A stretch of DNA of 64,000 nt from Candidatus Sumerlaeota bacterium (GCA_020848155.1 JADLAR010000003.1:3089-67088); one strand, 5' to 3'. Shown: positions 3,456-17,900, counted from the stretch's first letter. Notes: generated by a model not told the origin, from the sequence alone. Numbers and translations are program-made.

Positions 3456-3465
3456 TTTCGCGCTC

Positions 3466-5424
3466 CTATAGGAACCAGGGGGGCATATTTTCGATCTCAA
3501 TCTCGGACAAACCAAGCTGATCGAAATGGCCTATGTACCTGGAAATAAGCTGGGCATAGTAGACGGAAACTGGTGCAGACTTCGCATTGAAGCCACGCCA
3601 ATTAGCTCCGGACAAGTTTACGGCGTCTTGCAAAAAACCGACCTCATCATCCTTCTCCAAACCGCTATTGGAATAGGTGAATTCAACATGCATCGGTCGC
3701 GCGATACGGCGAGTGACTTTGGGGTTATGATACTGGAGTCCTTCGAACCAGACCAAGTACTCGCCGCGCCCCAAGCGAACGAACGTGCTCTCAAAGGGCG
3801 TTTTGCTATTGTTCCAAAGGGCAAACCCTAGGTACTTATCCGTGTCATTAAACTTCATCGCAACCAGTCGTTTTCCGTTGGCAGAGCCTTCAGAAAACTT
3901 AGCTAGAGCACGATGGACTTGATCTAGCTCGTCTCGGCGCAATGCGAATGGGGTATGGATGACGAAGGTGCGGTAGGCTTCCTCGTGCTCATGGAGCACC
4001 CCTAGAACCCCATCAAGCAATGTTTTTAGATACTCGCCTCTATTCTCACTATGTGCGACGACCCTGATCGTTTCATAGAGACCACTTGAGTCCGTAAGCA
4101 CGGAATAGGCGAAATATTTCGAAATCTTCCCCTCCCCATCCTTTCGATGCGCCTGACCTAGACCTACAATTAGGCAGGACTCATTCCTCGGTTCCACTTT
4201 CCAAGGCTTACCTCCAAGTTTTCCGAATGCAGCCAGAGCAATGTTCGCAACCGACCACTTGAAGGTATTGGCGTTCTTCAGCTTCTCGACGCTCACCAAC
4301 TGCGTCGGTAAGCGATTCTTCAGGTAGGTATGCTTGAGTCTGAAATAGGCTTTCTGGCCTTCGGGATCTTCGCTTTCACGGCTCCATGGAAAGAGAACTA
4401 TCGGCAAAACGGTCTCGCTTCCCGCCTCCTCCTTCAGCCTGCCCAGATCGTGCTGGAGAGCCTGAATAGAGAAGCCGGAGACGGCGAGACCTTTAACGTT
4501 TTCTTTTTCCAGCTTCAGACCAAACATCCGTTCCATTCCCGGGAAGGTATGGTATTTCTCGCCTCTCAGCGCGAAATAGAGATCGTGTGCCAGCGGCTTG
4601 TCCTCCGGCCGGTACAGGAAGCAGATGCTAGAAGCTCCCTCGGGGGCTTGGAAAGGTCCAGAAGTTTTCAGTCCCTGAAACTGAGAGGTTGACCGCTTCC
4701 CATTCCCGAGGACGTATGTCTTGGATTCGAGATGCCTCGAAGAAAGGCCCTCCGAGGGCCATTGTACGTCAAGGCTGAGGAATTCACTAACTTCGAGAGG
4801 AAAAAGTTTGGGCTTGTATATACGTAGAAATGACTCGCATTTAAGAAGATGGTCAGCATAGAAGTCGGTATTCTCCCTCCCCTCCCTGTTCAGACTCAGG
4901 CTTCGTTTGAGGGTCTCGCGAGAAACAACATCCATCTTGTTTCGGAAATGGAACCCCATCAAGAAACCGAACTGCTGCTTGGAGCTAAGGTAGAAGGGTT
5001 CAAGCCAGACCTGATCAACCCCCAATTCATCGTCTCGCATCACGAAGTCAATTGTGCGTCGAAAGCACTTGGGATCGGTCCGATACTCATCGGCATTCAG
5101 GACCGCTTGAACTCGCTTGAGCAGGAGGTTGAATAAGAACTGGATAGTAAGCTGAATCTTTGTCCGTGGCGCAGCATCGAAGGGCTCGAATCCCTTCATT
5201 GGGTCGAAGGAGATATCGAAGTCAACTCTTCCAGCCTCCTCTTCGCCGAGCCCGACAGGTAAGGAGTATCTCCTCAATCCCTCTCTCCGCATAGCATCAA
5301 GGGCGCTTCCCGGCTCGCTTCGCCGACGATACACCCGGACAGCGAATTCCTGCGGATCGCACGCGAGGAAATTCAGCGTGATTGGTTTATCCCGGTTCGC
5401 GTTTGTGGGCGGTTCGCTGATCAT
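3466..5424 (-). CDS. Prokaryotic Argonaute, long-B-like (MID-PIWI core with ~250-aa N-terminal region), catalytically inactive
   Basis: MID 5'-phosphate pocket pattern Y-x3-K..Q (AYFRLKHTYLKNRLPTQ). PIWI G-x-D-V slot reads LIVGLGQAHRK, so the Asp is absent. C-terminal PVSVYYAQLISRYIGHF is the PIWI tail signature. The track ORF starts at 5481 inside the upstream gene. The ATG at 5424 (MISEPP) with GAAGGG 9 nt upstream is preferred; 5433 is also possible. Confidence 0.7.
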   Translation of the reverse strand: MISEPPTNANRDKPITLNFLACDPQEFAVRVYRRRSEPGSALDAMRREGLRRYSLPVGLGEEEAGRVDFDISFDPMKGFEPFDAAPRTKIQLTIQFLFNLLLKRVQAVLNADEYRTDPKCFRRTIDFVMRDDELGVDQVWLEPFYLSSKQQFGFLMGFHFRNKMDVVSRETLKRSLSLNREGRENTDFYADHLLKCESFLRIYKPKLFPLEVSEFLSLDVQWPSEGLSSRHLESKTYVLGNGKRSTSQFQGLKTSGPFQAPEGASSICFLYRPEDKPLAHDLYFALRGEKYHTFPGMERMFGLKLEKENVKGLAVSGFSIQALQHDLGRLKEEAGSETVLPIVLFPWSRESEDPEGQKAYFRLKHTYLKNRLPTQLVSVEKLKNANTFKWSVANIALAAFGKLGGKPWKVEPRNESCLIVGLGQAHRKDGEGKISKYFAYSVLTDSSGLYETIRVVAHSENRGEYLKTLLDGVLGVLHEHEEAYRTFVIHTPFALRRDELDQVHRALAKFSEGSANGKRLVAMKFNDTDKYLGFALWNNSKTPFESTFVRLGRGEYLVWFEGLQYHNPKVTRRIARPMHVEFTYSNSGLEKDDEVGFLQDAVNLSGANWRGFNAKSAPVSVYYAQLISRYIGHFDQLGLSEIEIENMPPWFL

Positions 5425-5440
5425 CGTCCGCATCCCTTCA

Positions 5441-8400
5441 TTACTCGTCTCCCTTCTCTTCCTTCGGCAAAAAACTCGCATCCTGCACTGTCGCGCCCTT
5501 GGCGCGCACGTGGTTGCTGAGGCTTTCCAGGAGCGCGCGTTCCTCGCTGCCGGCGTCGGCCAACTCGATCAGCGACTGCACCAGCCGAATGAATAGCTCC
5601 TGGCGGCGGAGGCCGTGTTCGTCCAGGTATTCGTCCACCTTATGCACGTCCCCGGCACGCCATAAATGCATCAATCGGTGTATGCGGTCAATCAGGGGGA
5701 TCGGGCGGCCGCTGGGAGCCTCGTAACCCATCGAGGAACGCTTGCGCTGGGCCCAGGTCTTCAGCTTGAGCTTCCCGCCCGAATCCCCGCTATCGTCGGG
5801 ATCCGCCTCGGCATCCGGATCGGCGTCGTCCTCATCGTCATCATCCGCGGCGGCCTTGCTTCCCGTGTGCGAGACCAGGTCCCAAGCCGAGTCAAGGTCG
5901 CGATCTGACAAACCGCACGCTGTGGCATAGAGAATACACGCGCCGGCAGGAGCCTCTGCCAATCCGAAGTCGTGACGATGCAGAAGGTAATAGGCCGTCG
6001 GGGAATCCATGCGATCCGCCGCCGCCAGGTCTGATCCTTCGCCCTCGCCCGTCAGCACTTGGCCCACCACGAAGTCCACCACCATGCGCCGCACGAGGGA
6101 GAGAAACTCGCCCACACCGAGAACTTCGTTCGGCGTGTTCGCCTTTTTCACAATGGGGTGCTTGCTGTACGCTTCCAGCGCAGGACCCGTCGCCGACCAG
6201 ACAAAGTCCGGCCCGCGAATACCTGCATCCCAGAACTCGCGCAACCGATCACCGATCTTTGCCCGCATCTCTTCCAGTACCTTGTTGTCCCAGCCGGGAC
6301 GAGCAGTCGCAGGGCGTTTCTTGCAGACGAGCCAGACGGAGGAAGAGAGAGCGGCGGAGTTCATCCCTCGCATGCGATTCCCCATCTCCGTCTGAATAGG
6401 CCAACTTCCATCAACAATAAACCCCGCGCGGATGATCGCCGAAACCAGCGTCTCCCAAGCATTGGGGTGCTTGTGTGCGAAAACGATGACAAGGCGCCCA
6501 TCGGTCGTGAGAGACTTTTCGCAAGCTATGAAGGCCCTCGCCATGCCGTCTTCATAGGATTGCTTGGACGCCTTGGAATCGCCGCCATGACGACTGTCAT
6601 CGTCAATTAGTTCGCCGTCATTCGCATCATGATCCCATTTGGGAGAGGTCTCGCCCAATAGGAAGGCACCGTTCTCCAGCGGGGTCCTGCTGACGAATCG
6701 CTTGATCCAGACATAGAAAAAGTCCATGAGGTCAGAGTATGGGATCGCATCGTAATAGGGCGGGTCGGTGACAATACAGTCATACTGATGGTCGCTCATT
6801 TTGATAGCACTGTGATTTAGCGCTTTGGGAGTGGGTGAGGCTATCGAAGCTTGCATAATGTGCTCCCATGCTTCGCACAACCACTCAAGGTTTGAAAGGT
6901 AGTTTCCGGTAGTTTGGGAGATGGGATTTCCTTCACAGTAGTCCCAAATGATTGGTAGGGCAAACCTCGTAAATGTTCCTTGAAGGTTATCCCGCGTATT
7001 ATCCCATCGGCAAATTGAAGATTGCCTATCAGCGATTCGGTCCATTCCCACTGCAAGACCAGCATAGATTGCTTCTGTCCATGTGTGATCATAGCCTCTG
7101 GAAGTCAGTTCGCCCAGCGACGTCCTGCTGGATCGCAAGACCATTCCCAGCGTCTGTAACTGCCTATCTGTGAAAACATCGCGCCACTTCATCAAACCAT
7201 ACCCTTGGATTGAAAACGCCCGCGCAGCACCTCTACCTCCACCAGCCGGGGTCGGTTCCTCTGGACGACCGAACGGAATACTTGAGTAGACGTGATCTAT
7301 TGTCTTCTTGGCTCTGAGAGCGCACTTGACTTCGTGTTCAGTGGCTACCCGATACCCTTTACCAGAAGGACCTTCGACCACAACGGCTGTGGCAACCGCA
7401 GATAAATGGCCGCTTTTGCCCTCTACGCGAATATCTTCCATCGTCATAATGGTCTGGCAGCACGGGCACTGCACGCCTGCACGGGACATCGTTCCAGCCG
7501 ATATACGTTTATCATGCTCTCGTTTCTGCGCAGCGTTGCCTCCCTGCGCAGGGACGTTGTCCTGGATGCCGAACTCGACGCCGGTGCCATCGGCTTTGGG
7601 CTTCATGATCAGCAGGACGCGCTTGTTGTCCTTCTTGCAGAGCCAGCGCGTCTTGAGCAGCGGCACCTCGGCGCGGCAATTCTTGCACTTGACCGTCCGC
7701 GCCCACAAATAGGCCACCGTCGGTTTCGCCACCCATCGCGGGTTGCGTTTGGACTTCAGATATTCTGCTGTGAACTCGCCGTTGAGGGCCTCGATATCCG
7801 GTGTGCCATTCTCCTTCAGAGGGACCAGCCGCATCTCCTGCCGCTCGTAGGGCGATTTGTCTTTGAGATCAAGCCGCTCGAAATCCGCATAGGTGGGGTA
7901 ATAAGGGGCCAGTTCCTTGCGGGCCTCGTTGAGCACCCACCGCCCCCAGGCGCGCACATGCCAGGCGAGGTCCGCCCGGGGCGCGCGGCCTGCGTCTATA
8001 CGTTCCTTCTCAAAGAGATCGCCGGTGGCCTCCTCCTCCTGCTTTTTCGTGCGCTTAGTGCGACCGACCAGATGCGGGTGCGCCTTGTAGAAAGACTCCA
8101 TAAACTCCTCGTCCTCCAGAATGAAGTCGGGGAGCGGGTGCGTCTTGCCGGCGAGTTTCTGAGGATACTCCAGCGTGCATTTGAGGATGAACCAGGCGAC
8201 CGGGTTGATGTCCACCGCGGTGGCTTCGCAGCCAAGGCGCATGGCCTCCAGCGGAATCGCCCCACCGCCGGCAAAGGGATCAAGCACGCGCGGGGCGCGT
8301 CCGCCGTAGGCCTTGCGAATCTCCTCGCGAAAGAAGGCCAACTCCTTCTCGCGCTGGGCGACGGCGGCCTGGTGCTCCGCGATCTTCTTTTTCCCGCCAG

Positions 8401-9823
8401 ACTTCGGCTCCGTGCCGATCCAGCCCAGGATGCCGCCCTCGACCTCTTCCTTCACGCGCTCGACGATGCGCCCGTTGGGCATCTTCTTGCGCTCGACTGA
8501 CTGAACGACCTTCCCGCCAATGCGCTCGCAGAGTTCCTTGCGCGCCTCCGGCGTCCCCGGATCCGGCAGCAGCGTGGCGAGCAACGCCGCCCGACAAGCC
8601 GCCAACGGCCGCCGCGCCGGCCAGATGTGAAGAGTCGATATATGCCCATGGCGCACATTCTTCTCATGCACGGATGTAAGCGATGCCTGCTTGAGAGGGA
8701 AGGCACGTTCGATCAGGCGGGGGGTGTCGGGGGCTTGCTTTGTCAATTCTCGGGGCTCCGATTCTACTGATCGTTTGTTTGTTCGCTCTTCCGGTTTTTT
8801 CTCAATCTGCGACACTTCTTGGTGTTTTTGTTCAATGCCTTCTGGCTCTCTAATGGGACGCAAGGGTACTCCCAATGCTTCCCAGTTCAATTCCATCGTC
8901 TCCTTGTTCAGGCCGATGGGCTCTGCACCCGCACTTCTCAGAGCAGAGAATATCCCATTGGAAAGTTCTGAAAATCGTAGAAAGTGTACATCTCGTCTCG
9001 GGATCTCAAACAAATCTCCAGCGAATCTATCCAAAATCTTATCGTCCCGGCAAACAACGAGGCTTCGTATCCTTTCTCCCATCGTGTCGTTGATATGGGA
9101 TTTCAATCTTGGAGCGAAGCTCCTGGCATCTGACTTCTCAAGACGAACTCCGAAGCTTTCTAGCTGCCGCAGGAGACCCGATGTCGCTGAGGCTAGTTTT
9201 CTTGAAGGTGTTGTATAGACAAGATCGATTTGAGAAGGGATTTCGCTCCCGAGCCGTTTTAGAAGCGAATGGAGGGTATCGTGTTCTTTGTTTCCATCTA
9301 TACGGTAAACGAAGAGCGTCAATGCCCACGCTTTCTCATTCTGGCTGCGATCGAATTCATGCACACCGACAGAATGAGGTGGAAAAACAAGAACTGTGGT
9401 CTCCAGATCTCCGAGCCATTCTTCGATAAGTTTGCTTACCACATTCCAATCAAGCCCGCCGTTGCCGCAACCGAGAGCTGGAACTGTGATGGACTTGATA
9501 TTCTCATTAAGAAGAAAGCTTCTTAGCCAGCGAAGTCCCTTCAGTATATACGAATAAGTTGAGGGGCGTTTCCAGTCTGTTTTTGTCGGCAGATTGACGA
9601 TGATCGGTGTATCGGATAGCAGGTCATCGGACTTCCAGACGTGGGCTCGACCCGGCCGCACCTCGTCAGCCTTGCAGGCTTCAGCATAGCTCTTGTACAT
9701 CTCCGGGTATCGCTTCTTGAACAACAAGGCGATTCCCTTCCCCATGACGCCAACACAGTTCACGGTGTTCACGCGGGCCTGAGCCTCATGCTCGAACATG
9801 TCGCCGGTGACGTACTTGATCAT
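5441..9823 (-). CDS. DarG-like macro domain protein fused to DUF1156 N6-adenine DNA methyltransferase (1460 aa)
   Basis: N-terminus has VNTVNCVGVMGKGIALLFKKRYPEMY and PALGCGNGGLDW, a DarG/TARG1-type macro domain, plus ~200 aa more. From ~aa 365, TPRLIERAFPLKQ..RHGHISTLHIWPARRP is the DUF1156 N-terminal hallmark. MTase motif I DPFAGGGAIPLEA and motif IV TDPPYYDAIPY are present. Confidence 0.8.
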   Translation of the reverse strand: MIKYVTGDMFEHEAQARVNTVNCVGVMGKGIALLFKKRYPEMYKSYAEACKADEVRPGRAHVWKSDDLLSDTPIIVNLPTKTDWKRPSTYSYILKGLRWLRSFLLNENIKSITVPALGCGNGGLDWNVVSKLIEEWLGDLETTVLVFPPHSVGVHEFDRSQNEKAWALTLFVYRIDGNKEHDTLHSLLKRLGSEIPSQIDLVYTTPSRKLASATSGLLRQLESFGVRLEKSDARSFAPRLKSHINDTMGERIRSLVVCRDDKILDRFAGDLFEIPRRDVHFLRFSELSNGIFSALRSAGAEPIGLNKETMELNWEALGVPLRPIREPEGIEQKHQEVSQIEKKPEERTNKRSVESEPRELTKQAPDTPRLIERAFPLKQASLTSVHEKNVRHGHISTLHIWPARRPLAACRAALLATLLPDPGTPEARKELCERIGGKVVQSVERKKMPNGRIVERVKEEVEGGILGWIGTEPKSGGKKKIAEHQAAVAQREKELAFFREEIRKAYGGRAPRVLDPFAGGGAIPLEAMRLGCEATAVDINPVAWFILKCTLEYPQKLAGKTHPLPDFILEDEEFMESFYKAHPHLVGRTKRTKKQEEEATGDLFEKERIDAGRAPRADLAWHVRAWGRWVLNEARKELAPYYPTYADFERLDLKDKSPYERQEMRLVPLKENGTPDIEALNGEFTAEYLKSKRNPRWVAKPTVAYLWARTVKCKNCRAEVPLLKTRWLCKKDNKRVLLIMKPKADGTGVEFGIQDNVPAQGGNAAQKREHDKRISAGTMSRAGVQCPCCQTIMTMEDIRVEGKSGHLSAVATAVVVEGPSGKGYRVATEHEVKCALRAKKTIDHVYSSIPFGRPEEPTPAGGGRGAARAFSIQGYGLMKWRDVFTDRQLQTLGMVLRSSRTSLGELTSRGYDHTWTEAIYAGLAVGMDRIADRQSSICRWDNTRDNLQGTFTRFALPIIWDYCEGNPISQTTGNYLSNLEWLCEAWEHIMQASIASPTPKALNHSAIKMSDHQYDCIVTDPPYYDAIPYSDLMDFFYVWIKRFVSRTPLENGAFLLGETSPKWDHDANDGELIDDDSRHGGDSKASKQSYEDGMARAFIACEKSLTTDGRLVIVFAHKHPNAWETLVSAIIRAGFIVDGSWPIQTEMGNRMRGMNSAALSSSVWLVCKKRPATARPGWDNKVLEEMRAKIGDRLREFWDAGIRGPDFVWSATGPALEAYSKHPIVKKANTPNEVLGVGEFLSLVRRMVVDFVVGQVLTGEGEGSDLAAADRMDSPTAYYLLHRHDFGLAEAPAGACILYATACGLSDRDLDSAWDLVSHTGSKAAADDDDEDDADPDAEADPDDSGDSGGKLKLKTWAQRKRSSMGYEAPSGRPIPLIDRIHRLMHLWRAGDVHKVDEYLDEHGLRRQELFIRLVQSLIELADAGSEERALLESLSNHVRAKGATVQDASFLPKEEKGDE
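8640..8736 (-). repeat. Direct repeat copy 1 (fusion junction inside the macro-DUF1156 gene)
   Basis: See copy 2. The junction sits where QAPD-TPRLIERAFP in the fusion corresponds to M-TD-TPRLIERAFP in the relic. Confidence 0.6.
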
Positions 9824-9826
9824 CGT

Positions 9827-11140
9827 CTATACTCCATCATGGCCACGCGCGAGCTGGAGGATACTCTCGATTCTAGCGTGATCGTACCATAGTGGATTGA
9901 CTGCAAGGATATCGGCTTCGGAGAGAGCTGCCAGCATTTGGAGAGTGTTCTCGTTTCGGGCAATAGGTGCGAGTTCTTGGACACGTCGACCACCTCCGCA
10001 AAGATCTCCAATCAGATCATGATAGCAAACCAAGGTCAGAACTGCGACAGCCTCGTCCCGGGTTATATCGGGTAGGTTGTTTAGCAACTCAACGCAGCTG
10101 GGAAGGGCCTGTATCGGATGATCCGTGTCTTTCTTGTATTTCCCATCCTTCCTATTTCTACCGTTCGGAATCCCTTTGCCTACGTCGTGAAGGTACGCCG
10201 CAAGTTTGGTGAGTTTCTTTTCTCTTGCTGATAGAGCCACGTAGCGAGGGCGCTTCTTGAGCTGTTCAACTACCTGAAGCGTGTGTTGACCTACATCTCC
10301 ATGAATTTCATCCTGTAGCCCACATAAGGCCCCTGTAAGTGGATGGTTAGCTAGATCAGCCTTCAATTGCTTTAGCAAGTCGTCCAACGGAGATAGTGTG
10401 CAGCCTGTTCCCTTGCTGGCAGCTATTTGGCGAACCGCCTTGGTTAGTTCCAACTGTATTGCCTTAGGACCACTTACTATAGATCGCTTTGCCCCTTCGG
10501 AGGCGTAAAATGGTGTTATGAAATGGTGTGAATCATACTCTGTTTTTATGTTGATGTTCTGAGCCGCGAGATACCGTTGCACCTGGTCCGCGATCGCTTT
10601 GTTCCAGACTACTATGCTATCAATGGTTGCAAGAGGTACGGAGCCGTGAATGAGGAACTCTGCCATCCTTTTATGCCTTTGAACCTCATTCTTTAGCGAC
10701 CACTTTTGAAGCTCTATGCATTCCCAGTCCAAATTCGCCAGCGAATGTGGGGAATTGTAGAAGGTAGGGGGTATATTCGTATTTGCCGAGGCATCCGAGA
10801 AAACATAGGGATAACTAATCGCATCGCGCAGTTTGACGCGCAGGAAAATAAGGAGCTGCTGATCTGCCACCCTCCTAAACACCACTCCTGTAAACATGTC
10901 TGTGAGCTTCGCAAAATAAAAGGGAACGTAATTATGCACCACTCCACCTGGGCCACAAGTCACCCTCGTATTGGCCCTCCTCGCCTGAATTCCTTCGTAC
11001 GCTACGTCGTAATGGATGAGCCCACGGCTGAGCTTTTGTTGTGTTGAGAGCAAACCGCCTTGGGACAGGATCGATGGCAGATTATCCAAATGAGTAAAGT
11101 GGTACACCATTCTGTCTTGGTGTATAGCAGGCAGTGTCAT
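9827..11140 (-). CDS. darT: DarT (DUF4433) ssDNA thymidine ADP-ribosyltransferase fused to C-terminal HD phosphohydrolase domain
   Basis: MVYHFTHLDNLPSILSQGGLLS, VVHNYVPFYF and RMAEFLIHGSVPLATIDSIVVWN match the DarT catalytic core. The C-terminal half has H..(30)..YLHDVGKG..DHP..CYHDLIGD, an HD motif set. The stop lies 3 nt before the macro-MTase start. Confidence 0.72.
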   Translation of the reverse strand: MTLPAIHQDRMVYHFTHLDNLPSILSQGGLLSTQQKLSRGLIHYDVAYEGIQARRANTRVTCGPGGVVHNYVPFYFAKLTDMFTGVVFRRVADQQLLIFLRVKLRDAISYPYVFSDASANTNIPPTFYNSPHSLANLDWECIELQKWSLKNEVQRHKRMAEFLIHGSVPLATIDSIVVWNKAIADQVQRYLAAQNINIKTEYDSHHFITPFYASEGAKRSIVSGPKAIQLELTKAVRQIAASKGTGCTLSPLDDLLKQLKADLANHPLTGALCGLQDEIHGDVGQHTLQVVEQLKKRPRYVALSAREKKLTKLAAYLHDVGKGIPNGRNRKDGKYKKDTDHPIQALPSCVELLNNLPDITRDEAVAVLTLVCYHDLIGDLCGGGRRVQELAPIARNENTLQMLAALSEADILAVNPLWYDHARIESILQLARGHDGV

Positions 11141-11973
11141 GATGGCATCCTTTCCTGGAGCTTGCGTAGCAGCAAGTCCCCGACAATTCCCATTACCTGT
11201 GTAGCGTGCCTCGCTTCTTCCGAGGTTACACTAGGAAGCCACGGATGGCCATGCCCGGTCCCTTGCTTATTGCGCAAGGTGTTGATCGCGCATGCCGCCT
11301 CATAGAGCGCGCGTTGCAATCGCTGTTGAGGTGTGCCGGAGGTTGCCGGATTGTCGGCCGATGTCTTCAGATCCAGCGCTGCGAAGGCTTGACCAAGGAG
11401 CGTGGGGAAGTTGTGGGGCGGATTGTTGTTATTCCATACTTCCACAAGGACATGCGCCGCGATTGCCTCAAGGAGATCCTTACCTGTGCCAACCACCAAT
11501 GCGGCATCCTCAGACCCCCTCTGGGCTCTTCGCACGTAGGCGCCTAGTGCCTCAGTCAACTCCGTTCCGACGAGACTATCCAAAACGGCGGGCTGAATAT
11601 GACCATCTGGAGACAGGATGAATCCTTCTGCAGAAAGGACGTCGCGGAACGCCTGAATCTCTTCGCTTCCCACATAGTGCGCAGATTCCGGGCGGAACCC
11701 ACCGCATGACCGAACCATCGCGATCAGACGATCGACAAAGTCGCGGCCCCCTTCGAAGGAGTTCTCAATTGCCCACGAAAGGATAAGCCGAACGCGCTTC
11801 GCTTTGCCGACGGTCTGACCGCTCTGCTTCGGATCGCCGCGCTCAAGCCCTGAGGAGGTGACGCAGAACTCAATGTCCGAATGGCTTGGATCACGTCGCT
11901 CCTTTTGTGCGTCGTCAACTAATCGAGCCAATGCGTAAATGATAGCATCAGTCAGAGGTGGCTTGGTCCTCAT
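11137..11973 (-). CDS. Abi_C / HEPN-like abortive-infection-type protein (278 aa)
   Basis: C-terminal LRNKQGTGHGHPW is an R-N-x6-H motif of the HEPN/Abi_C type. ATGA overlaps at both ends. Confidence 0.5.
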   Translation of the reverse strand: MRTKPPLTDAIIYALARLVDDAQKERRDPSHSDIEFCVTSSGLERGDPKQSGQTVGKAKRVRLILSWAIENSFEGGRDFVDRLIAMVRSCGGFRPESAHYVGSEEIQAFRDVLSAEGFILSPDGHIQPAVLDSLVGTELTEALGAYVRRAQRGSEDAALVVGTGKDLLEAIAAHVLVEVWNNNNPPHNFPTLLGQAFAALDLKTSADNPATSGTPQQRLQRALYEAACAINTLRNKQGTGHGHPWLPSVTSEEARHATQVMGIVGDLLLRKLQERMPS

Positions 11974-12284
11974 GCTGCTCCTCCTAACTGAGCCATGACT
12001 TCATCGACAGACATGGACCTGCCATTTTGGAGCGTTCGGCCACCCTGCCATTCTCGACCTCGGGCTCGTTGGTTCGCGTCCCACTCTGAGTATTTCTGAA
12101 CAGTCGGACCAGAAACATGATAGAGACATCCTGCAACAATTTCGCCGGAGAAGCTGCCTCGCCGCGCGAGCCAGATATGCAGCGTCGAAATATGCCCATA
12201 CCGCACATTCCTCTCGTGCGCGGGGGTCAGTGATACCTGCTTGAGAGGAAAGGCGCGTTCGATAAGGCGGGGGGTGTCGGTCAT
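11970..12284 (-). pseudogene. Relic 5' end of a DUF1156 methyltransferase gene. First ~32 codons are conserved, the rest is unrelated. It may still be translated as a 104-aa peptide.
   Basis: MTDTPRLIERAFPLKQVSLTPAHERNVRYGHISTLHIW matches aa ~363-400 of the 1460-aa fusion protein. About 100 nt (12183..12280) is ~85% identical to 8640..8736. Confidence 0.6.
12183..12280 (-). repeat. Direct repeat copy 2 (ancestral DUF1156 start region)
   Basis: Aligned by eye to 8640..8736, ~85% identity over ~100 nt. Confidence 0.6.
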
Positions 12285-12292
12285 GAGCTATA

Positions 12293-13738
12293 TTACCTTT
12301 TCACAATTCGTTGGTATTCGGAGTCTGTACCTAGACGTCCCATCGCATTCGGTGGAAAGGAAATTATCTTATCCAAGCCCCGATTAATTTCTGTATTAAC
12401 TGCTTGGGTTTTTATGCGTGTAGCCAGCGCGGCGTATTCTTGACCGCACGAAGTGCTTTGCAATCGACTCAAAAATTCTCGGTCGTATGGCAATCGAGTG
12501 AAGATCCGAATGTGACGATCTTGCCACTTCGAGATCAATTCATCGTAAAAGGGGACGGCTGCATTTGACACCCCATATCCGTTTCCAATTCTGCAAAGCG
12601 TTAAAACCTTCACGTACTTTGCTTCGACGCTGTGGGGGACGGCGCCATTGGCTGGAATTAGGCGAGACAATGCTCTTGCTGGAGCAACTTCGCGAGAGAA
12701 GTTACTCCAGCCTTGGTGGGCCGAATAAAGGGAATCCACAGCGGTACCGATTTCGACGGCGAGGGTCTCTGCTGGCAGAAAGCTAAGGCCGTCAACAAGG
12801 TCCAGAAACTCCCGAATCAGTTTTGCGCGTGCCACATCTCCGTTAGCGGCGAGGGTCGCTTGCTTCAGCCCTGCTTCATACTTGGCATCATCTGGTGCTG
12901 CCCCCCAAAGCCCAGCTGCAATCAACTTTATGTTATTCCGTACGTGTGCATCCAAACTCGGGTCTCCGTACATTCCGGCGATCGCCCTCGACAACGAAAT
13001 CAGCAATTCATCCGGAAGGAGCTTTATCGCTTCAATTATCGCTGGAGTATCACTTGAACTGAAGGTGTTTTCTCGGATGTTCTTCAACAACCGCCGGACC
13101 TCAAGTGCGGGACCGACCGGGTCTTTCGCCAACACCTCCTTTACGCAGGTCTCCAGCCAACTCACCAATTGAAGTCCAGAGAGATCGTTTTGATTAGGGT
13201 GGGCCGCGCTCGCATGGTTTCGCATGGAGCGAATATAGTCCAGATGGCGGTAACCAATGTCCGTGATGATACCTGCTTCCATGGACCCTTTGATCAGCTC
13301 CCAGTCCTCGATCTTCGCCAAATCCTCAGGAGTTCGTAGTTTCGACCTTCGCGCTGGATCTGTGACAACCGTGCTGAAGAAGTAGTCGAGATCAAACCGC
13401 GTGACCTTGTCGCGTATACTCCGAACCGTTTCATCCCACAAATAGTTCAGAGCAGCATCGAAGAGACCGATGCCACATGCAGCGACGAACTTAGACAGAT
13501 ACATGGCACTCTGCTTCTGTTCGTCGTTCAGAAGAGCAACGACGTCAGGAAGGTTGTTGATCACCTTGCGGCGTTCCGATTGTTCCACGAGAACTGCTTC
13601 TGAGGGCACACCTAGATAATCCAGGTAAGTGGTAAGCCCCGAAGCAAACTGTGCCAAGGATTCAGAGACTGCATCTGGATTCGAAGGGATTATATCAGCC
13701 ATCGCTTGTTGTCGCTCCGTGAGAGGATATTCATGCAA
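12293..13738 (-). CDS. Hypothetical protein (481 aa) with HEPN-like R-x6-H motif
   Basis: DYIRSMRNHASAAHPN resembles the motif in the 278-aa Abi_C-like ORF. No other domain recognised. Tight coupling to neighbours. Confidence 0.4.
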   Translation of the reverse strand: MHEYPLTERQQAMADIIPSNPDAVSESLAQFASGLTTYLDYLGVPSEAVLVEQSERRKVINNLPDVVALLNDEQKQSAMYLSKFVAACGIGLFDAALNYLWDETVRSIRDKVTRFDLDYFFSTVVTDPARRSKLRTPEDLAKIEDWELIKGSMEAGIITDIGYRHLDYIRSMRNHASAAHPNQNDLSGLQLVSWLETCVKEVLAKDPVGPALEVRRLLKNIRENTFSSSDTPAIIEAIKLLPDELLISLSRAIAGMYGDPSLDAHVRNNIKLIAAGLWGAAPDDAKYEAGLKQATLAANGDVARAKLIREFLDLVDGLSFLPAETLAVEIGTAVDSLYSAHQGWSNFSREVAPARALSRLIPANGAVPHSVEAKYVKVLTLCRIGNGYGVSNAAVPFYDELISKWQDRHIRIFTRLPYDREFLSRLQSTSCGQEYAALATRIKTQAVNTEINRGLDKIISFPPNAMGRLGTDSEYQRIVKR

Positions 13739-14996
13739 AATACTCCTGATCTAAAGGCAGGAACCCAAACACGAGCCCGCCGGTAGTATAGAAAAGGTGG
13801 CCCTGAAGCGTGAAATGCGTGTATCCGCCACGCTCTGTTCTTCTGAAGGAGGGGTTTACGTTTTTCTTGAACTCCTTCTGAAAGCGACCATTTGGAACAA
13901 CGCATCGAACTTTCTGAAAAACTCTGCGACGTTTCATGATGAAGGAGGCTATCGGATCGAAATCTTGCTTGGCGAGCATGGGCAGTAAGCCACCATTAAT
14001 ACCAATGAACAAACACGCCTCTTTACTTAGGGCGAAAACCTGCCCTCCGGCACTATCGTCGTCTGTATGCGACTTATTTGCGAACCACGCCAGCCCACCC
14101 GATGCTCCGCGGATGTCGAAACCCTCTCCATCCCCTCTCAATAATCCAACGCTATCCAACTGAAAAGGGTCTGAAAGTTCCTGGAGCGCAGAGACACGAG
14201 TTTGCAGCGATGCTGAAAAAGGGGATCGAGGGCTGATGAAAGAAATCAGGTCTCTCAGGTTCTCAAGTCGAGCTAAGAGCCTAAAGTCTTCGGGGTTCGT
14301 ATCTTCGGTGAGCGGTGGGTCGAGGAGCCAGCATTTCGGCCTTGTGCCCTTGCGTCCGTCTAGCGCGACGATTGTTCCATACCTAACACCATTAGCGGGG
14401 GCAGGGTTAGCTTTCTTTTTTTTGCGGATATCAGAAGCGTGAGAATATACACTCCCACGGTCCTTCTTCCTATTATCAGCGCACGACGTACCTTTATTTT
14501 CAACTTCAATGATAAATTCGCCCGAACTAGCTGCAAGAGAGTAGCTATAGTCTAGGGTCTTCGTCTTTCGTTCTTCTATTGGGCTCCAGTCGACCGATGT
14601 AAGCCGGTGAATTTTTGAAATCAGGGCCAGACCTATTGCTTCACCGAGTCTTTCGGAGGTTCCTCTATCTGTCCCTCTGGGAGCGATGACTCGAAGAGCT
14701 CCTTCTTCAATTTCAATTAGCCCGTCCCAGTCGAAGAGCGTATGTTTTGCCTTTTTCTCTAGTATTTCAGCGAAGCTGAGGTAACCCGGAGCGCCTTGCT
14801 TCCGCTTGAGAAACTGTGAATAGACAAGAACTTCATCCGTTGGAACCTCAATCTGTCCCGGGATCTGAATCTTGTCTAAGTACTCTTTAGCAGCAGAGAC
14901 CTTCAGGGCGTCTTGATCTGCCCTATTGTAGTAATCAACGTATACTTTGAGGGTGTCAGGTAGGGTTCCAGTAAATAGAGCTTCGGCTAGAGCCAT
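13731..14996 (-). CDS. Hypothetical protein (421 aa), no recognisable domain
   Basis: Long ORF in operon context, AT-rich. Only a weak D..(E)xK-like FIIEVENKG motif. An 8-nt overlap with the next gene, and 1 nt after the helicase stop. Confidence 0.4.
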   Translation of the reverse strand: MALAEALFTGTLPDTLKVYVDYYNRADQDALKVSAAKEYLDKIQIPGQIEVPTDEVLVYSQFLKRKQGAPGYLSFAEILEKKAKHTLFDWDGLIEIEEGALRVIAPRGTDRGTSERLGEAIGLALISKIHRLTSVDWSPIEERKTKTLDYSYSLAASSGEFIIEVENKGTSCADNRKKDRGSVYSHASDIRKKKKANPAPANGVRYGTIVALDGRKGTRPKCWLLDPPLTEDTNPEDFRLLARLENLRDLISFISPRSPFSASLQTRVSALQELSDPFQLDSVGLLRGDGEGFDIRGASGGLAWFANKSHTDDDSAGGQVFALSKEACLFIGINGGLLPMLAKQDFDPIASFIMKRRRVFQKVRCVVPNGRFQKEFKKNVNPSFRRTERGGYTHFTLQGHLFYTTGGLVFGFLPLDQEYFA

Positions 14997-14997
14997 A

Positions 14998-17900
14998 TCA
15001 GCTTTCCCCCGCTTCCAATACTTGGTTCTGCCCGATCCTCACCCCGCCCGTCTCCACCATAGCGTTAATGGTCCTCACCACGTTCTGCGTCTTCTTGAAC
15101 GGCCGGACTAGCAGCTTAGCAAACGGGTCCTGAACGCGCACGAGCTGGGGCGTCGGTGTGCCGCAGTGATAGACAACGTAGAGCCAGTATTTGTCGCGAA
15201 GGTTGCATGCCTTGGCCCATTCGTTGTCTGTGATTTCGATCTCGCTGACACCAATGCACCCCTTCACCTCGATACAACGTTGGTTATTGCCGGGACGGGT
15301 ACTGAGCATGTCGAAGCCGGGATGATCCGGCATGCTGGCGGCGCGGGCGAGCGCCCGAGTGTGGACGTATCTGACGGTGGCGCCTTCAGCTTCCTCGTGG
15401 GCTTTTGCCAGGTCCATGGCGATTTGCTCGACATTGGCATCACGCCATTCCAGTTGGGCAGGATCGGTGGCGGGGATGACAAGGGCATGGGCAAAGAAAT
15501 TGACCTGACCGGGGACGAGCAATTCGGGTTCGCGGCGGAGCATCGTCAAGGCGCGGGTGCGACGCGTATCCAGATCGCGCTGCTGGTTCTTAATGTGGGT
15601 TAGTTCGGCGGCGGCGCCCTTGCTTCCAGTCCGGGACTTTTGCGACATCTTGGTGCGCGCCGCGGCCAACTCGGCCTCCTGGAAATCGAATCCGCGCTTT
15701 ACGAAGGACTCCCTTTCGGGAAGAGAGGCCACGCGACGTTCGCGGCATTCGACTGCGAGAGAGCGGCAAATGCGTTCAGCAAGATAGGCCTGCGCATGGT
15801 CGATGAGTTTGGATGCTTCGACGGCGAGCCGCTGCGCAAGCGGCGGCAGGCCTTGTCCGCCCCGGAGGAGAAGGAGGTGCTCGACAGGACATATCCTTAT
15901 ATCGCCGGATTCCGACTGACGGAGCCCAACGAGCCGGCACTCGACAGTTTCTTCACGGGAGAGTTCTGAGAATTCCGGATCGCCTTTTCGAATCACGGAC
16001 AGACGTGCGAGGTGAAAGAGATAGGGGGCCTCCGCGGTGGGATCGACGAAGATTGCCCCCTTGAGGGCTTCTTTGCCGAGCTTCTGGCGAACAAGCTCGC
16101 GAAACCGTTCGAACACCGGTTCGCCGGGATGGACCCAGATGCAGGACTGACGATCACCGGGACGATAGATCGAGAGCTTCTGGTTTTGTGGGTGGGGATA
16201 ACTTTCGATCGCTGAGAGCATCGGGTCGAGGGCCCCGTCTTTGGCGGGGACGAAATTAAAGAGAGTGCCGGGATCTCCGTCGATCTCAATGCCGACCATG
16301 GGCGCCGTCGAGGTAACGAATTTCCTGACATAACCAGGCATGAGACGAAAGTAGGTCTCTTGTTCGATGCTTTCGCGGAGACGGGGCAGCTCTCGTTTCA
16401 CATCACCGCCATCGCCGTATAGAACCTTCTCCTGATCCTGAATCGCTTTTACCTGCTCCTTGGAGAGGCGTCCGTCCAGTTCATGCGCGATAATTTCTGG
16501 GTCATCACCGGCTGCAATGCGCTGCATATATACCTTGATAGACACATCGCTGAAAATGCGGCCGATGCTGTCGAAGACCTTGTCGGACTTGAGCTGTTTG
16601 CGGATTTTTTCTAGTTTGTCGAGCAAGGTCTTGAGCACCCGGCCTTCCCGCGTCGCCGGTGCGACGAGGTTGAGGATGACAACGGGATCGTGCTGCTGAC
16701 CGTAACGATGGATGCGACCCATGCGTTGTTCGAGACGCGCTGGATTCCAAGGGACGTCGTAATTGATCATGATCCAGCAGAACTGAAGATTTACGCCCTC
16801 AGCGGCGGCGTCAGTGCAGATCATGAACCGCGCGCCGCCATCGACGGCTGGCAGGCGGAAACGATCGATCTGCTCTTGCCGCTCGGTGAAGTGCATGCCG
16901 CCGTGGATCTGAGCGATCTGGTCCGTATATCCCATTCCGCTTAAGCGGCGCACGAGGAACTCCAGGGTGTCTTTGTGCTCTGTAAAGACGATCAGCTTTT
17001 CCTGCGCGAACTGATCGTCCTGAAGTACGGTTCGGAGTTTGTCGTATTTTGACTCTGTGCCAGACTCGTAGACTCTGGAAGCGATCTCTCGAAGGGCCAC
17101 AACCTGCTGGCGCTCGGCCACCAAATCGCCGAGTGAAGATGCGATGATGCCCTGCAGCAGCCTGTCCTCAGCCAGTTCGTTTTCTTCCGTTCCTTCTTCA
17201 CAGCTTTCCTCGTCAGCCGATTTTGATTCGAGTACGTCGTCGTCATCCTTGATGCTTCTCTGATAAGCAAGCAACTGCTCGAATGTGATTCGACCGGACT
17301 GTATATCGTCGATAATATTATCAAGTTTGACGATGCGCCGCTCAAAGGAACAGAGAAGCGCAAAAGTGGAACTGGCCAGTCTACGCTGAAAGACTGACAT
17401 GGCAAGCTGGGCCGCGGATTGATTCAGCACCCTGGCTTTGTTGTAGACGTGACGGAGATACTCAGTGGTCTGATCATAGAGATCCTGTTCGCTGCCAGCG
17501 CCGCTGCCCAGACTGTATCCGAGTGTATTGCAGACACGCGTCGGGTAGAGCGGCTGACCATCCAGGCGAACCATTTCTTCCTTGGTGCGTCGGATGAAAT
17601 AGGTTCGACGATTCTCGGCGGGAAACTGGTCAAAGGAATCGGGAGTGGAGAGGACCTCCGGCTCAAGAAGGCGCCAAAGTGCGTAGTACGGGTAATCCTT
17701 GCCCATGTGAGGCGTCGCAGTGAGGAGCAAGAGATGGTGTGACTTCCACGGAAGCTTCCAGCCGCGGTCACCTGTATCTACCCCCGCGATGGCTTCTGCT
17801 AACTTGTAACGGTCGGTTTTGGTGACTCGGAAATCGGATCCCCGGCTAGAGGAAAGCTTGTGCGCTTCGTCGAAAACGATCAGGTCATATGGTTCAACGT

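Follow-up and report, generated by a model that had tools for sequence, protein, structure and literature searches.

A 104-codon open reading frame in a Hma defence operon as a probable seam between two stacked cargo sets

Our analysis of a 64,000-nt stretch of DNA (the window) indicates that a 104-codon open reading frame (ORF) is probably a recombination seam at which two sets of anti-phage genes have been stacked in a single Hma operon. As the ATG of this relic stands at the start position of hmaB, the DUF1156 methylase gene, and a decayed tail of the helicase gene hmaA follows beyond the breakpoint, we read the ORF as an hmaB-head/hmaA-tail seam. We directly observe the identity of both stubs, the native adjacency of each to its cargo, the decay of the head and the recurrence of such seams in other loci. 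The relic is useful evidence for cargo stacking in a known hotspot and does not define a new system.

The Hma operon and its cargo

The locus is a Hma (type-1 DUF499-centred BREX-related) defence system with the gene order hmaA helicase, cargo slot, hmaB, pAgo with SIR2, and hmaC (Table 1). HmaA and HmaB were recognised by PADLOC and Pfam and HmaC by tblastn, with the DUF499 protein of locus L001 being 83% identical over residues 1-784 (window 2352..1). HmaA contains the Pfam domains HTH_3, SNF2-rel_dom, Helicase_C and NOV_C (PD-(D/E)xK) and matches positions 73-1147 of the 1176 in the PADLOC HmaA model (E 2e-153). The order pAgo then SIR2 is also found in L004 and L017.

The first gene of the slot encodes a protein of 421 aa that matched nothing in Pfam or PADLOC, lacks homologues across the other 96 loci and forms a singleton cluster. 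In the DarT-HD protein, the DarT domain is recognised by both Pfam (E 2.6e-42) and PADLOC, the C-terminal HD match is sub-threshold (21.7 bits against the 22-bit Pfam cutoff), and identity to the L001 counterpart is 59%. The DarG part of the fused 1460-aa protein matches Pfam Macro (E 6e-16) and positions 1-159 of 329 in the PADLOC DarG model (E 2.6e-64), and stand-alone DarG-like proteins of ~380 aa match its macro part alone; the region past the macro domain lies outside the DarG models and is 31% identical between the window and L001 fusions. The HmaB part (PADLOC HmaB E 7e-116, Pfam DUF1156 E 6e-18) is 74-76% identical to stand-alone HmaB proteins of ~1100 aa. A Pfam scan of four slot genes of the window matched no recombinase family.

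Table 1. Features of the Hma operon in the window, from hmaA to hmaC.
Feature	Position	Strand	Remark
hmaA, HTH-SNF2 helicase with C-terminal NOV_C nuclease domain, 1202 aa	14998..18606	-	left border of cargo slot
Cargo cassette 1 gene 1, 421-aa protein, family unknown	13731..14996	-	Pfam and PADLOC blank
Cargo cassette 1 gene 2, 481-aa protein, large uncharacterised family	12293..13738	-	1617 homologues
Relic ORF, 104 aa, GenBank MCC6545651.1	11970..12284	-	reads through seam
hmaB head stub, codons 1-42 of DUF1156 methylase gene	12159..12284	-	N-terminal profile
hmaA tail stub, decayed last 45-55 helicase codons	11984..12158	-	tblastx, profiles, nhmmer
Cargo cassette 2 gene 1, Abi_C-domain protein, 278 aa	11137..11973	-	Pfam Abi_C E 8e-12
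Cargo cassette 2 gene 2, DarT-type ADP-ribosyltransferase toxin with fused HD domain, 437 aa	9827..11140	-	Pfam, PADLOC
DarG part of fused gene, macro domain and poorly conserved ~200 aa	8735..9823	-	Pfam Macro
hmaB part of fused gene, full-length DUF1156 N6-adenine methylase from third residue	5441..8734	-	PADLOC
Second cargo slot between hmaB and hmaC, pAgo with SIR2 partner	2352..5481	-	Pfam, PADLOC
pAgo, PADLOC class II, Piwi domain, 671 aa	3466..5481	-	pAgo_II E 5e-194, Pfam Piwi
SIR2 partner of pAgo, 387 aa	2352..3515	-	Aga_SIR2 E 1e-120, Pfam SIR2_2
hmaC, DUF499 ATPase, first 784 residues in window	1..2352	-	gene runs off window start

An hmaB head joined to an hmaA tail

The relic, annotated in GenBank as a 'DUF1156 domain-containing protein', has its own ATG at 12284, 8 nt past the stop of the 481-aa gene, and its TGA overlaps the Abi_C start as ATGA, just as an earlier reading of this DNA made from the sequence alone (the sequence-only reading) had described. 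That reading counted about 32 methyltransferase-like codons; the codon table gives 42, and similarity ends abruptly at codon 42. The head matches the N-terminal profile of the family at model positions 1-40 of 70 only (E 2.6e-21), PADLOC HmaB at positions 9-47, and Pfam DUF1156 with relic residues 11-42, where the domain is incomplete (model positions 1-33 of 73 only). As the relic ends after 104 codons, the methyltransferase catalytic core and the target-recognition domain are missing.

The ATG of the relic occupies the position at which intact hmaB starts in relatives, directly behind a gene of the 481-aa family. This gene stands directly upstream of intact hmaB in L011 and L012, and the end of the 481-aa gene, the spacer and the hmaB start are collinear with L011. 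These observations support the view, already put forward in the sequence-only reading, that recombination left the relic as the 5' end of a DUF1156 gene that formerly stood alone. Six residues of the head (A17, S21, V22, K25, H29 and P39 in relic numbering), which do not change in any of the 40 listed homologues (120 were compared), are all replaced, one of the replacements turning WPARR into WLARR. For residues 43-104 (62 aa), no convincing homologue was found among 1.84 billion representative proteins; the relic matched itself and, weakly and in several stretches, two long proteins (E 3e-5 and 1.5e-4). The ORF as a whole is a singleton cluster in the protein collection, with no whole-length homologue and hence no sign of a conserved independent gene family. 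On sequence grounds it appears to be a non-functional scar, which is probably transcribed with the operon and might yield a junk peptide.

The tail stub is read by the relic ORF in a different frame. In its own frame the helicase remnant terminates at a TAG (11986..11984), and the 10 nt that separate this stop from the Abi_C ATG include a GGAGG. The helicase end is conserved across loci, and tblastx against the L001 helicase end returned the tail stub with E 0.011. In searches with protein profiles of the helicase tail, the stub was the best non-self match in the whole six-frame window (window-wide E 0.02-0.25), nhmmer matched 12133..12072 (E 0.0047) and 12134..12047 (E 7.4e-5), and local alignment against shuffles gave z values of 8.6, 7.3 and 5.1. 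The stub is weak on its own, and its assignment leans on the DNA profile, on its occurrence where such a tail was predicted and on the clear seams elsewhere. In other loci, Abi_C family genes immediately follow hmaA, immediately precede hmaB, or do both (homologues in L062, L018, L089 and L049), and in L062 the Abi_C start overlaps the hmaA stop. The seam would lie between the cassettes 421+481 and Abi_C+DarT-HD+DarG.

Chimeras of an hmaB head with an in-frame hmaA tail (hmaB-head::hmaA-tail) also sit in the slots of two other loci, L020 and L049 (heads E 2e-25 and 8e-26, tails 8e-27 and 6e-6). Their breakpoints and sequences differ from those of the window, and no second genome in the protein collection carries exactly the window junction. 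Six to seven further loci hold single stubs, with a head only in L031/L033 and a tail only in L007, L044, L054, L059 and L073. The modules separated by each stub are self-contained (e.g., NYN, Gabija-like, CBASS, AAA_15). Cargo is present in 66 of the 73 complete slots, and stubs were detected in 9 of 28 slots of at least 2 kb and in none of the 45 that are shorter (Fisher P 7e-5). Stub lengths are short and alike across loci (hmaB 29-56 codons, hmaA ~36-69 codons), which random breakpoints fail to explain. Stacking need not leave stubs, because in L089 Abi_C shares a slot with a 481-family gene and no seam is detectable. Compared over short segments, L021 is nearer to the L020 stubs than the resident copy is, and for the stubs of L044 (93%) and L031 (94%) the resident copy is the nearest.

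Selection might instead keep the seam ORF open, either because it hands ribosomes on from the 481-aa gene to Abi_C, with translational coupling and avoidance of polarity, or because a small peptide made from the HmaB N-terminus serves as a decoy or regulator. In line with this, 62 codons past the breakpoint are open and end in ATGA (chance ~0.05 by shuffling), the L020 and L049 seams are likewise open up to the next gene, and no promoter-like or terminator-like site was found on the seam strand around the seam. We nevertheless regard selection as unlikely: the C-terminal 62 aa lack homologues, the protein is a singleton, 6-8 residues that are otherwise invariant have been replaced in each of the head stubs of the window, L020 and L049, breakpoints vary between loci, Abi_C has the GGAGG of its own upstream region, and two in-frame seams out of three are not significant (inferred P ~0.26).

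Divergence of the repeat and origin of the seam

The head of the relic repeats the head of the hmaB part of the fused gene: 12160..12280 matches 8610..8730 without gaps at 102 of 121 nt (84%; single BLASTN match on the minus strand, E 2e-31; also aligned by MAFFT). The ~85% repeat of the sequence-only reading is thus real, with its partner segment 8640..8736 displaced by ~6 nt and the match running 23 nt further. The position is the exact start of the DUF1156 part of the fusion, as claimed (Pfam residues 374-424). Judged by the alignments, the identity is far above chance for random DNA, yet no higher than between any two genes of the family. Over the same 119 nt, L001, L002 and L004 are 78-82% identical to the resident copy and 78-81% to the relic, the hmaB head shows 76-92% nucleotide identity between unrelated intact loci, and the 40-residue head peptide is nearly invariant (39/40 in many of 120 homologues). 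Per amino-acid-identical codon, the relic shows 0.42 synonymous differences to the resident gene and 0.35-0.42 to L002, L011, L008 and L001; at synonymous sites, methylase genes of unrelated metagenomes are therefore at least as similar to it as the resident gene is, in a comparison of only 40 codons with low power. On these comparisons the relic head would be foreign in origin and no displaced copy of the resident start, as part of a seam reading that we consider likely as a whole.

An in-situ tandem duplication of the whole slot, from hmaA tail to hmaB head, after which the two copies lost or replaced cargo differently and the stub underwent gene conversion, would make the same junction with every gene kept intact, and it has a precedent in L044, where a recent 251-nt duplicate (93% identical) spans the hmaA tail and runs 19 codons into the following gene. 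However, a duplicate of the fused gene would follow darG, whereas the head stub has its own ATG behind the 481-aa gene. Moreover, the two cargo sets have nothing in common and the synonymous divergence is at between-locus level, so that we consider this origin quite unlikely.

The sequence-only reading had proposed that a cassette of Abi_C, DarT-HD and DarG entered the 5' end of the resident hmaB, thereby creating the fusion and displacing a copy of its start 3.4 kb upstream. The relic is indeed a genuine hmaB start at its native position, and the resident copy is nominally its best BLASTN match (84.3% vs 81.6%). Nevertheless, this origin is very unlikely. The synonymous divergence from the resident gene is as large as that from foreign alleles, an outcome that the sequence-only reading had itself named as grounds for refutation. 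The relic differs from the resident gene by 6 non-synonymous changes (dN/dS 0.11), where 20-24 are expected for a neutrally decaying in-situ copy (P 1e-5 to 3e-4). A helicase tail between relic and Abi_C is not predicted by such an insertion. Furthermore, L001 has a homologous DarT-HD and DarG::HmaB directly behind the helicase, without relic and without Abi_C, indicating that the fusion is older and not a product of the seam event. At the L001 fusion junction (...EP-MTDKPRLIE) the hmaB Met-Thr-Asp is still in frame, so the fusion arose by read-through of adjacent darG and hmaB. The DarG::HmaB fusion is independent of the seam event, and the relic gives no date for it, contrary to the earlier proposal. 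What stands of that interpretation is an hmaB remnant left by recombination; the creation of the fusion, the displaced copy and the content of the inserted block do not.

That the Hma loci of two strains were chimerically joined during assembly is hardly credible, even for a contig of a metagenome-assembled genome (Candidatus Sumerlaeota) with conserved repeats in the locus, as mis-joins arise at identical repeats, unlike the non-homologous junction of hmaB codon 42 with the hmaA tail, both stubs show mutational decay, and equivalent seams occur in independent assemblies.

For the recombination seam, we infer the order of events, the resident parent and the molecular route. Two different Hma loci would have recombined, locus X with hmaA-421-481-hmaB and locus Y with hmaA-Abi_C-DarT-HD-DarG::hmaB; neither parent type was found as a close relative. 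A non-homologous joint may have linked codon 42 of hmaB(X) to roughly codon -50 of hmaA(Y), and a second crossover, probably homologous, would have taken place in a conserved core gene. The product would contain one intact hmaA and one intact hmaB with both cargo sets stacked, and the truncated core-gene ends would be left back to back as hmaB head and hmaA tail. The incoming block would have comprised a helicase 3' tail on the left and its own hmaB beyond Abi_C, DarT and DarG, and not these three genes alone. Candidate routes are homology-facilitated illegitimate recombination, deletion between tandem Hma loci, and single-crossover integration of a circularised slot fragment.

More tentatively, the conserved ends of hmaA and hmaB could act as portable homology arms, with cassettes moving as 'hmaA-tail - cargo - hmaB-head' units and Hma serving as an integrase-free stacking platform, a possibility that we find rather doubtful at present. 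If it holds, short hmaB-head::hmaA-tail seams of similar size would be the signature of the platform, the seams might stay open and preserve translation through the operon, and they would let the order of cassette acquisitions be rebuilt across thousands of loci.

Comparison with known systems

The window operon has the same core genes in the same order as Halomonas hmaABC, for which HmaA activity was reported and which is a hotspot with Septu, PARIS and Ppl between hmaA-hmaB and hmaB-hmaC and insertions in ~66.5% of systems (PMC11232893). Hma has since been renamed as the type-1 DUF499-centred BREX-related system (PMC12839542). In the parts of the two papers considered here, neither a mechanism nor core-gene remnants are described (PMC11232893, PMC12839542), and relative to these parts the hmaB-head/hmaA-tail seams and single stubs are additions of the present analysis. 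A term search of the text considered from the BREX-related paper returned no DarT, CBASS, pAgo/Piwi or Argonaute cargo, and 'macro' only in 'macroglobulin' and 'macromolecule' (PMC12839542).

With the anti-phage toxin-antitoxin system DarTG, the second cassette shares the DarT domain, the DarG-type macro domain and the tandem order of toxin then antitoxin. In contrast to DarTG, the window DarT has a C-terminal region with the sub-threshold HD match, and DarG, there a separate protein of ~350-380 aa with a C-terminal DarT-binding domain, is fused to full HmaB in both the window and L001; in the window protein the macro half alone matches DarG models.

In replacement-end integration, as for prophage e14 and phage 21 in icd, the incoming DNA brings its own gene end, and the displaced original end persists nearby as a pseudogene with mostly synonymous differences. 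Such events depend on an integrase acting at a fixed att site, whereas the breakpoints of the Hma seams differ between loci.

A parallel in process may be offered by Rhs/CDI toxins and Vibrio T6SS effector-immunity clusters, where C-terminal displacement and orphan arrays have been attributed to homology-facilitated illegitimate recombination (PMC5361080). In both settings a conserved gene segment would serve as homologous anchor while the other end joins illegitimately, and the old module is shifted but kept, leaving orphan fragments and a stacked array. The window shows several features of such a scar: shared conserved anchors (hmaB head and helicase end), native neighbours on both sides (481-hmaB head as in L011/L012, hmaA tail-Abi_C as in L062) and a non-homologous joint. 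Unlike these arrays, Hma stacks whole defence systems inside another defence operon, for which the mechanism is suggested by analogy. The two Hma anchors are, moreover, each the end of a different core gene, which allows a two-sided chimeric seam to form.

An Hma operon with two cargo slots

Pfam and PADLOC searches recognised an Hma system in the window, called a type-1 DUF499-centred BREX-related system in the available portion of PMC12839542. The source contig belongs to a Candidatus Sumerlaeota MAG, and every gene considered lies on the minus strand. Between the genes for the HmaA helicase and the HmaB methylase, the operon carries a series of cargo genes that includes a 104-aa ORF, here termed the relic, and ends in a DarG macro domain fused to HmaB.

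Genes of the Hma operon in the window and related features in other Hma loci (L numbers)
Locus	Feature	Position	Strand	Description
Window	HmaA	14998..18606	-	HTH-SNF2-NOV_C helicase (PADLOC E 2e-153)
Window	421-aa protein		-	hmaA-hmaB slot; without known domains
Window	481-aa protein	12293..13738	-	hmaA-hmaB slot; without known domains; 481 family
Window	Relic ORF	11970..12284	-	hmaA-hmaB slot
Window	Abi_C protein		-	hmaA-hmaB slot, after the relic
Window	DarT-HD protein		-	hmaA-hmaB slot; DarT domain and sub-threshold HD-domain match
Window	DarG macro domain		-	End of slot, fused to HmaB
Window	HmaB		-	DUF1156 methylase (Pfam, PADLOC; E 7e-116); C-terminal 1097 residues of 1460-aa protein
Window	DarT-HD + DarG::HmaB	5441..11140	-	Two-gene module
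Window	pAgo + SIR2 partner	2352..5481	-	Between hmaB and hmaC; pAgo PADLOC class II, E 5e-194
Window	HmaC	2352..1	-	DUF499 ATPase; gene present but truncated by window edge
L001	DarT-HD + DarG::HmaB	3248..8953		Two-gene module (59% and 67% identity to window, respectively)
L004	pAgo + SIR2	8945..11803		Between hmaB and hmaC
L017	pAgo + SIR2	13313..16385		Between hmaB and hmaC; hmaC follows immediately
L011	481-family gene	10001..11398		
L012	481-family gene	3509..4933		
L089	481-family gene	4125..5549		
L044	251-nt duplicate	4436..4686, 6211..6461		93% identical, recent
L070	hmaB with broken frame	6597..9842		Broken after about 200 codons; head within 209-aa fragment
L007	ORF of ~407 aa	4659..5882		In slot, between hmaA and AAA_14/DUF4143 ATPase gene

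The interval between hmaB and hmaC is a second Hma cargo slot, with an Argonaute system. A pAgo and SIR2 pair occupies it in three loci (the window, L004 and L017), and in the window the 3' end of hmaB and the start of pAgo share 41 nt.

Composition and origin of the relic ORF

BLASTN aligned 12160..12280 with 8610..8730 in a single ungapped match (102/121 nt, 84%; E 2e-31). The repeat that the sequence-only reading had placed at 12183..12280 and 8640..8736 is thus real, with its second interval misplaced by about 6 nt and the alignment 23 nt longer. The relic's own ATG, the 8-nt spacer from the 481-aa gene and the ATGA overlap with the next start had been read correctly; instead of the ~32 methyltransferase-like codons counted then, codon comparison showed that the relic has 42 in common with the DUF1156 start of the 1460-aa gene, the resident hmaB copy. 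Similarity stops sharply past W-x-A-R-R.

Conservation of the protein in the window and L001-L012 is highest over the first 40 hmaB codons, in the N-terminal helix region. Many of 120 homologues share 39/40 residues of this nearly invariant head peptide with the resident copy, while being only 64-76% identical to resident HmaB overall. Because the peptide varies so little, unrelated loci are 76-92% identical over the same 119 nt, across which the resident copy matches L001, L002 and L004 at 78-82% and the relic matches them at 78-81%. A regulatory RNA in the conserved head was ruled out, as synonymous sites vary freely (~0.47 differences per codon between loci).

Counting only codons with the same residue in both sequences, we found 0.42 synonymous differences per codon between relic and resident gene (13 in 31), and 0.35, 0.38, 0.41 and 0.42 between the relic and L002, L011, L008 and L001, respectively. 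By this measure, 7/21 foreign-locus pairs are as similar as, or more similar than, the relic-resident pair. The divergence is therefore at the between-locus level and the pairwise identity no better than codon constraint gives, an outcome that the sequence-only reading had itself named as speaking against it. Its proposal that the relic is a displaced copy of the resident start also fails on replacements: neutral drift of such a copy should have left 20-24 non-synonymous differences, and six are observed (Poisson P 1e-5 to 3e-4), at a synonymous distance matching that of foreign alleles. The relic carries all six replacements, each at a position invariant among the homologues listed, and the Nei-Gojobori method gave a dN/dS of 0.11 (Sd 14 over 31.5 sites, Nd 6 over 88.5 sites). 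The low ratio and few replacements suggest that the divergence mostly predates the loss of relic function; its bulk would have accrued in separate lineages, with both sequences serving as working methylase genes, and neutral decay would represent a short last phase only.

Which hmaB gene the relic started is indicated by its 481-aa neighbour, a member of a large uncharacterised family (1617 matches, about 475 aa) without Pfam or PADLOC match. In L011 and L012, homologues with 69% and 60% identity are followed by an intact hmaB after 14 and 18 nt, respectively, and the 481 gene end, spacer and ATGACC start align with the window. By this collinearity, the relic ATG is the native start of an hmaB formerly behind the 481-aa gene. 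Of four loci examined, three have a 481-family gene immediately 5' of an hmaB start, and the family may be a defence family not yet characterised or an accessory to Hma.

For the 175 nt from the breakpoint to the Abi_C gene, an hmaA 3' end was predicted beforehand and then tested. In tblastx, the segment matched the L001 helicase end (E 0.011); in another frame it reads ...LVRLFRNTQSGTRTNEPEVENGRV..., and helicase tails read ...LVRPFSKTQSVERTIRATVESGGV.... With protein profiles of foreign helicase tails, it was the best non-self match in the six-frame window (E 0.15-0.25), reaching E 0.019 when the window's own helicase was added; a larger 'long-tail' helicase profile gave no better E-value, still 0.2. 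A DNA profile built from the 3' ends of four foreign helicase genes matched 12133..12072 (E 0.0047), and 12134..12047 (E 7.4e-5) with the window's own helicase included. In local alignments, the scores against the window helicase (z 8.6) and against L001 (z 7.3) lay above every one of 500 shuffles, and that against L004 (z 5.1) tied the highest of 500. BLASTN of the segment against all loci gave no match, the tail being visible only to profiles and shuffle-controlled alignments. The tail stub ends with TAG at 11986..11984, 10 nt 5' of the Abi_C ATG, with GGAGG in the spacer, and Abi_C homologues are found immediately behind hmaA in L062 and immediately before hmaB in L018, L062 and L089. These tests support a helicase 3' end, and the relic ORF is thus a seam of an hmaB head and an hmaA tail, each beside its native neighbour. 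L089, with a 481-family gene and Abi_C in one slot, was searched for a hidden seam and none was found; its intervening 213-aa ORF is unrelated.

The relic protein (GenBank MCC6545651.1, 'DUF1156 domain-containing protein') is a singleton, and for its residues 43-104 a search of 1.84 billion representative proteins returned no homologue beyond its own sequence and two weak repetitive matches. It is not a conserved independent family. Its head is decayed, and it is an ordinary pseudogene fragment; MCC6545651.1 should be annotated as a pseudogene seam and not as a DUF1156 protein. Scanning around the seam revealed no promoter or terminator site on the coding strand, so that the relic is probably co-transcribed with its neighbours. 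Beyond the breakpoint its frame continues for 62 codons without a stop and closes right at the Abi_C start (chance about 0.05); with the in-frame seams of L020 and L049, this makes it modestly possible that selection keeps translation through the seam uninterrupted.

Age of the DarG::HmaB fusion

The HmaB homologue P0002 (1462 aa, 67% identical to the window fusion) shows the same Macro-DUF1156 architecture. Its contig, L001, has the order helicase, DarT-HD, DarG::HmaB, DUF499, with no relic, Abi_C, 421 or 481 gene. Identity between the two loci is 75% for the helicase, 59% for DarT-HD, 66% for the Macro domain, 31% for the linker and 74% for the methylase. The P0002 junction, ...REP-MTDKPRLIE, retains hmaB's original Met-Thr-Asp in frame, and the window has Ala-Pro at the same two positions. 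The in-frame MTD and the relic-free module show that the fusion arose as darG was read through into the neighbouring hmaB, before the window and L001 lineages split. They contradict the earlier proposal that the event behind the relic created the fusion. As a recombination footprint, the relic stands as the remnant of an ancestral hmaB, but it reveals neither the origin of the fusion nor its date, for which it is no longer usable. Overall, the original observation holds once its coordinates are slightly corrected, and its interpretation finds partial support. Since the junction of the window copy lacks an internal Met, HmaB can be produced there only as a DarG fusion.

A literature search found no published description of the DarT-HD + DarG::HmaB architecture. 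Searches with the DarG part returned only stand-alone DarG-like proteins, matched in the macro domain alone, and no further fusions; a DarT-HD alignment run against metagenomes gave no relatives, and exact look-up of the relic and the fused protein in a contig index gave no match. Other N-terminal HmaB fusions carry a GIY-YIG nuclease domain (P0003, P0015, P0037) or a Y1-transposase-like domain (PF01797; P0026, P0034, P0071, P0104), and fusion of HmaB to other domains seems recurrent.

Core-gene stubs and cargo stacking

We collected 96 further loci and scanned their six-frame translations with hmaB-head and hmaA-tail profiles; a genome-collection scan with HmaB had yielded just 6 loci. L020 and L049 contain in-frame chimeras (head E 2e-25 and tail E 8e-27; head E 8e-26 and tail E 6e-6), whose head stubs have 7-8 replacements at invariant positions. 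The L020 seam, a 121-aa ORF starting ...IPRLIEHAFPFKQASLDSVHEKNVLHGHISTLHIWPERR and ending ...NEWANDCNMRQSYWIYAFYNCATPNPRFVRVQDPFGNPLAKAKGRVLVSQFQIVGAGEV, lies in the order hmaA, NYN, seam, Gabija-like OLD ATPase + UvrD helicase, hmaB; that of L049 lies behind an Abi_C gene end. L031/L033 carry a 29-codon head stub with an AAA_15 gene on one side and an NYN gene on the other, and L007, L044, L054, L059 and L073 have only a helicase-tail stub within the slot. Stubs divide self-contained modules, e.g., CBASS, NYN and DUF4062, and are always short (hmaB 29-56 codons, hmaA about 36-69 codons). Cargo is present in 66/73 loci with a complete slot, and stubs occur in 9/28 slots of at least 2 kb versus 0/45 shorter ones (Fisher P 7e-5).

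Stubs are 76% to 94% identical to the resident gene. Some are closer to foreign alleles, L021 being nearest for both L020 stubs, and others, e.g., in L044, are recent local copies. The L044 duplicate, a fresh example of tail-stub origin, reaches from the last 62 hmaA codons across a 5-nt spacer into the first 19 codons of the DUF4062 gene that follows.

The commonest minimal cargo in the sample is an NYN-domain protein (about 207-235 aa), present in 15 loci (L019, L020, L027, L029, L031, L033, L034, L044, L059 and six others) and often the sole occupant of an ~800-nt slot (L019, L027, L029, L034). The broken L070 hmaB frame comes from a pseudogene with a frameshift or from an error in assembly, and the ~407-aa ORF of L007 might be transposase-like, a guess from sequence alone.

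At the window seam, one hmaB allele contributed the head and one hmaA allele the tail, and both stubs still have their native cargo beside them. Two Hma loci carrying different cargo would have recombined, one joint being non-homologous and the other crossover presumably homologous, within a conserved core gene. A parent with the order hmaA, Abi_C, DarT-HD, DarG::hmaB was not recovered. Deletion between two tandem Hma loci, or single-crossover integration of a circularised slot fragment, gives the same seam product, and both are candidates besides recombination between two loci. Site-specific integration is ruled out by varying breakpoints and the lack of a recombinase-family match in the window slot genes scanned, and an assembly chimera by the decay of both stubs.

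According to the available portion of PMC11232893, the Hma insertion hotspot is already published, with Septu, PARIS and Ppl as inserts of the hmaA-hmaB interval and about 66.5% of systems having gene insertions; that of PMC12839542 describes BREX-related loci that embed auxiliary effectors. These portions do not mention core-gene remnants or a mechanism of cargo entry. The stubs are physical footprints of such entry into the Hma operon, and the relic's worth is as one among several footprints of cargo stacking. They show that cargo arrives together with core-gene ends, that cassettes can stack instead of replacing one another, and that the process recurs: among the 73 slots sampled, roughly one in three of the long ones holds a stub.

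The relic belongs to a known kind, the displacement scars at polymorphic loci. [quoted passage not shown] The logic is the same, but in the Hma case whole immune systems are nested inside another immune system.
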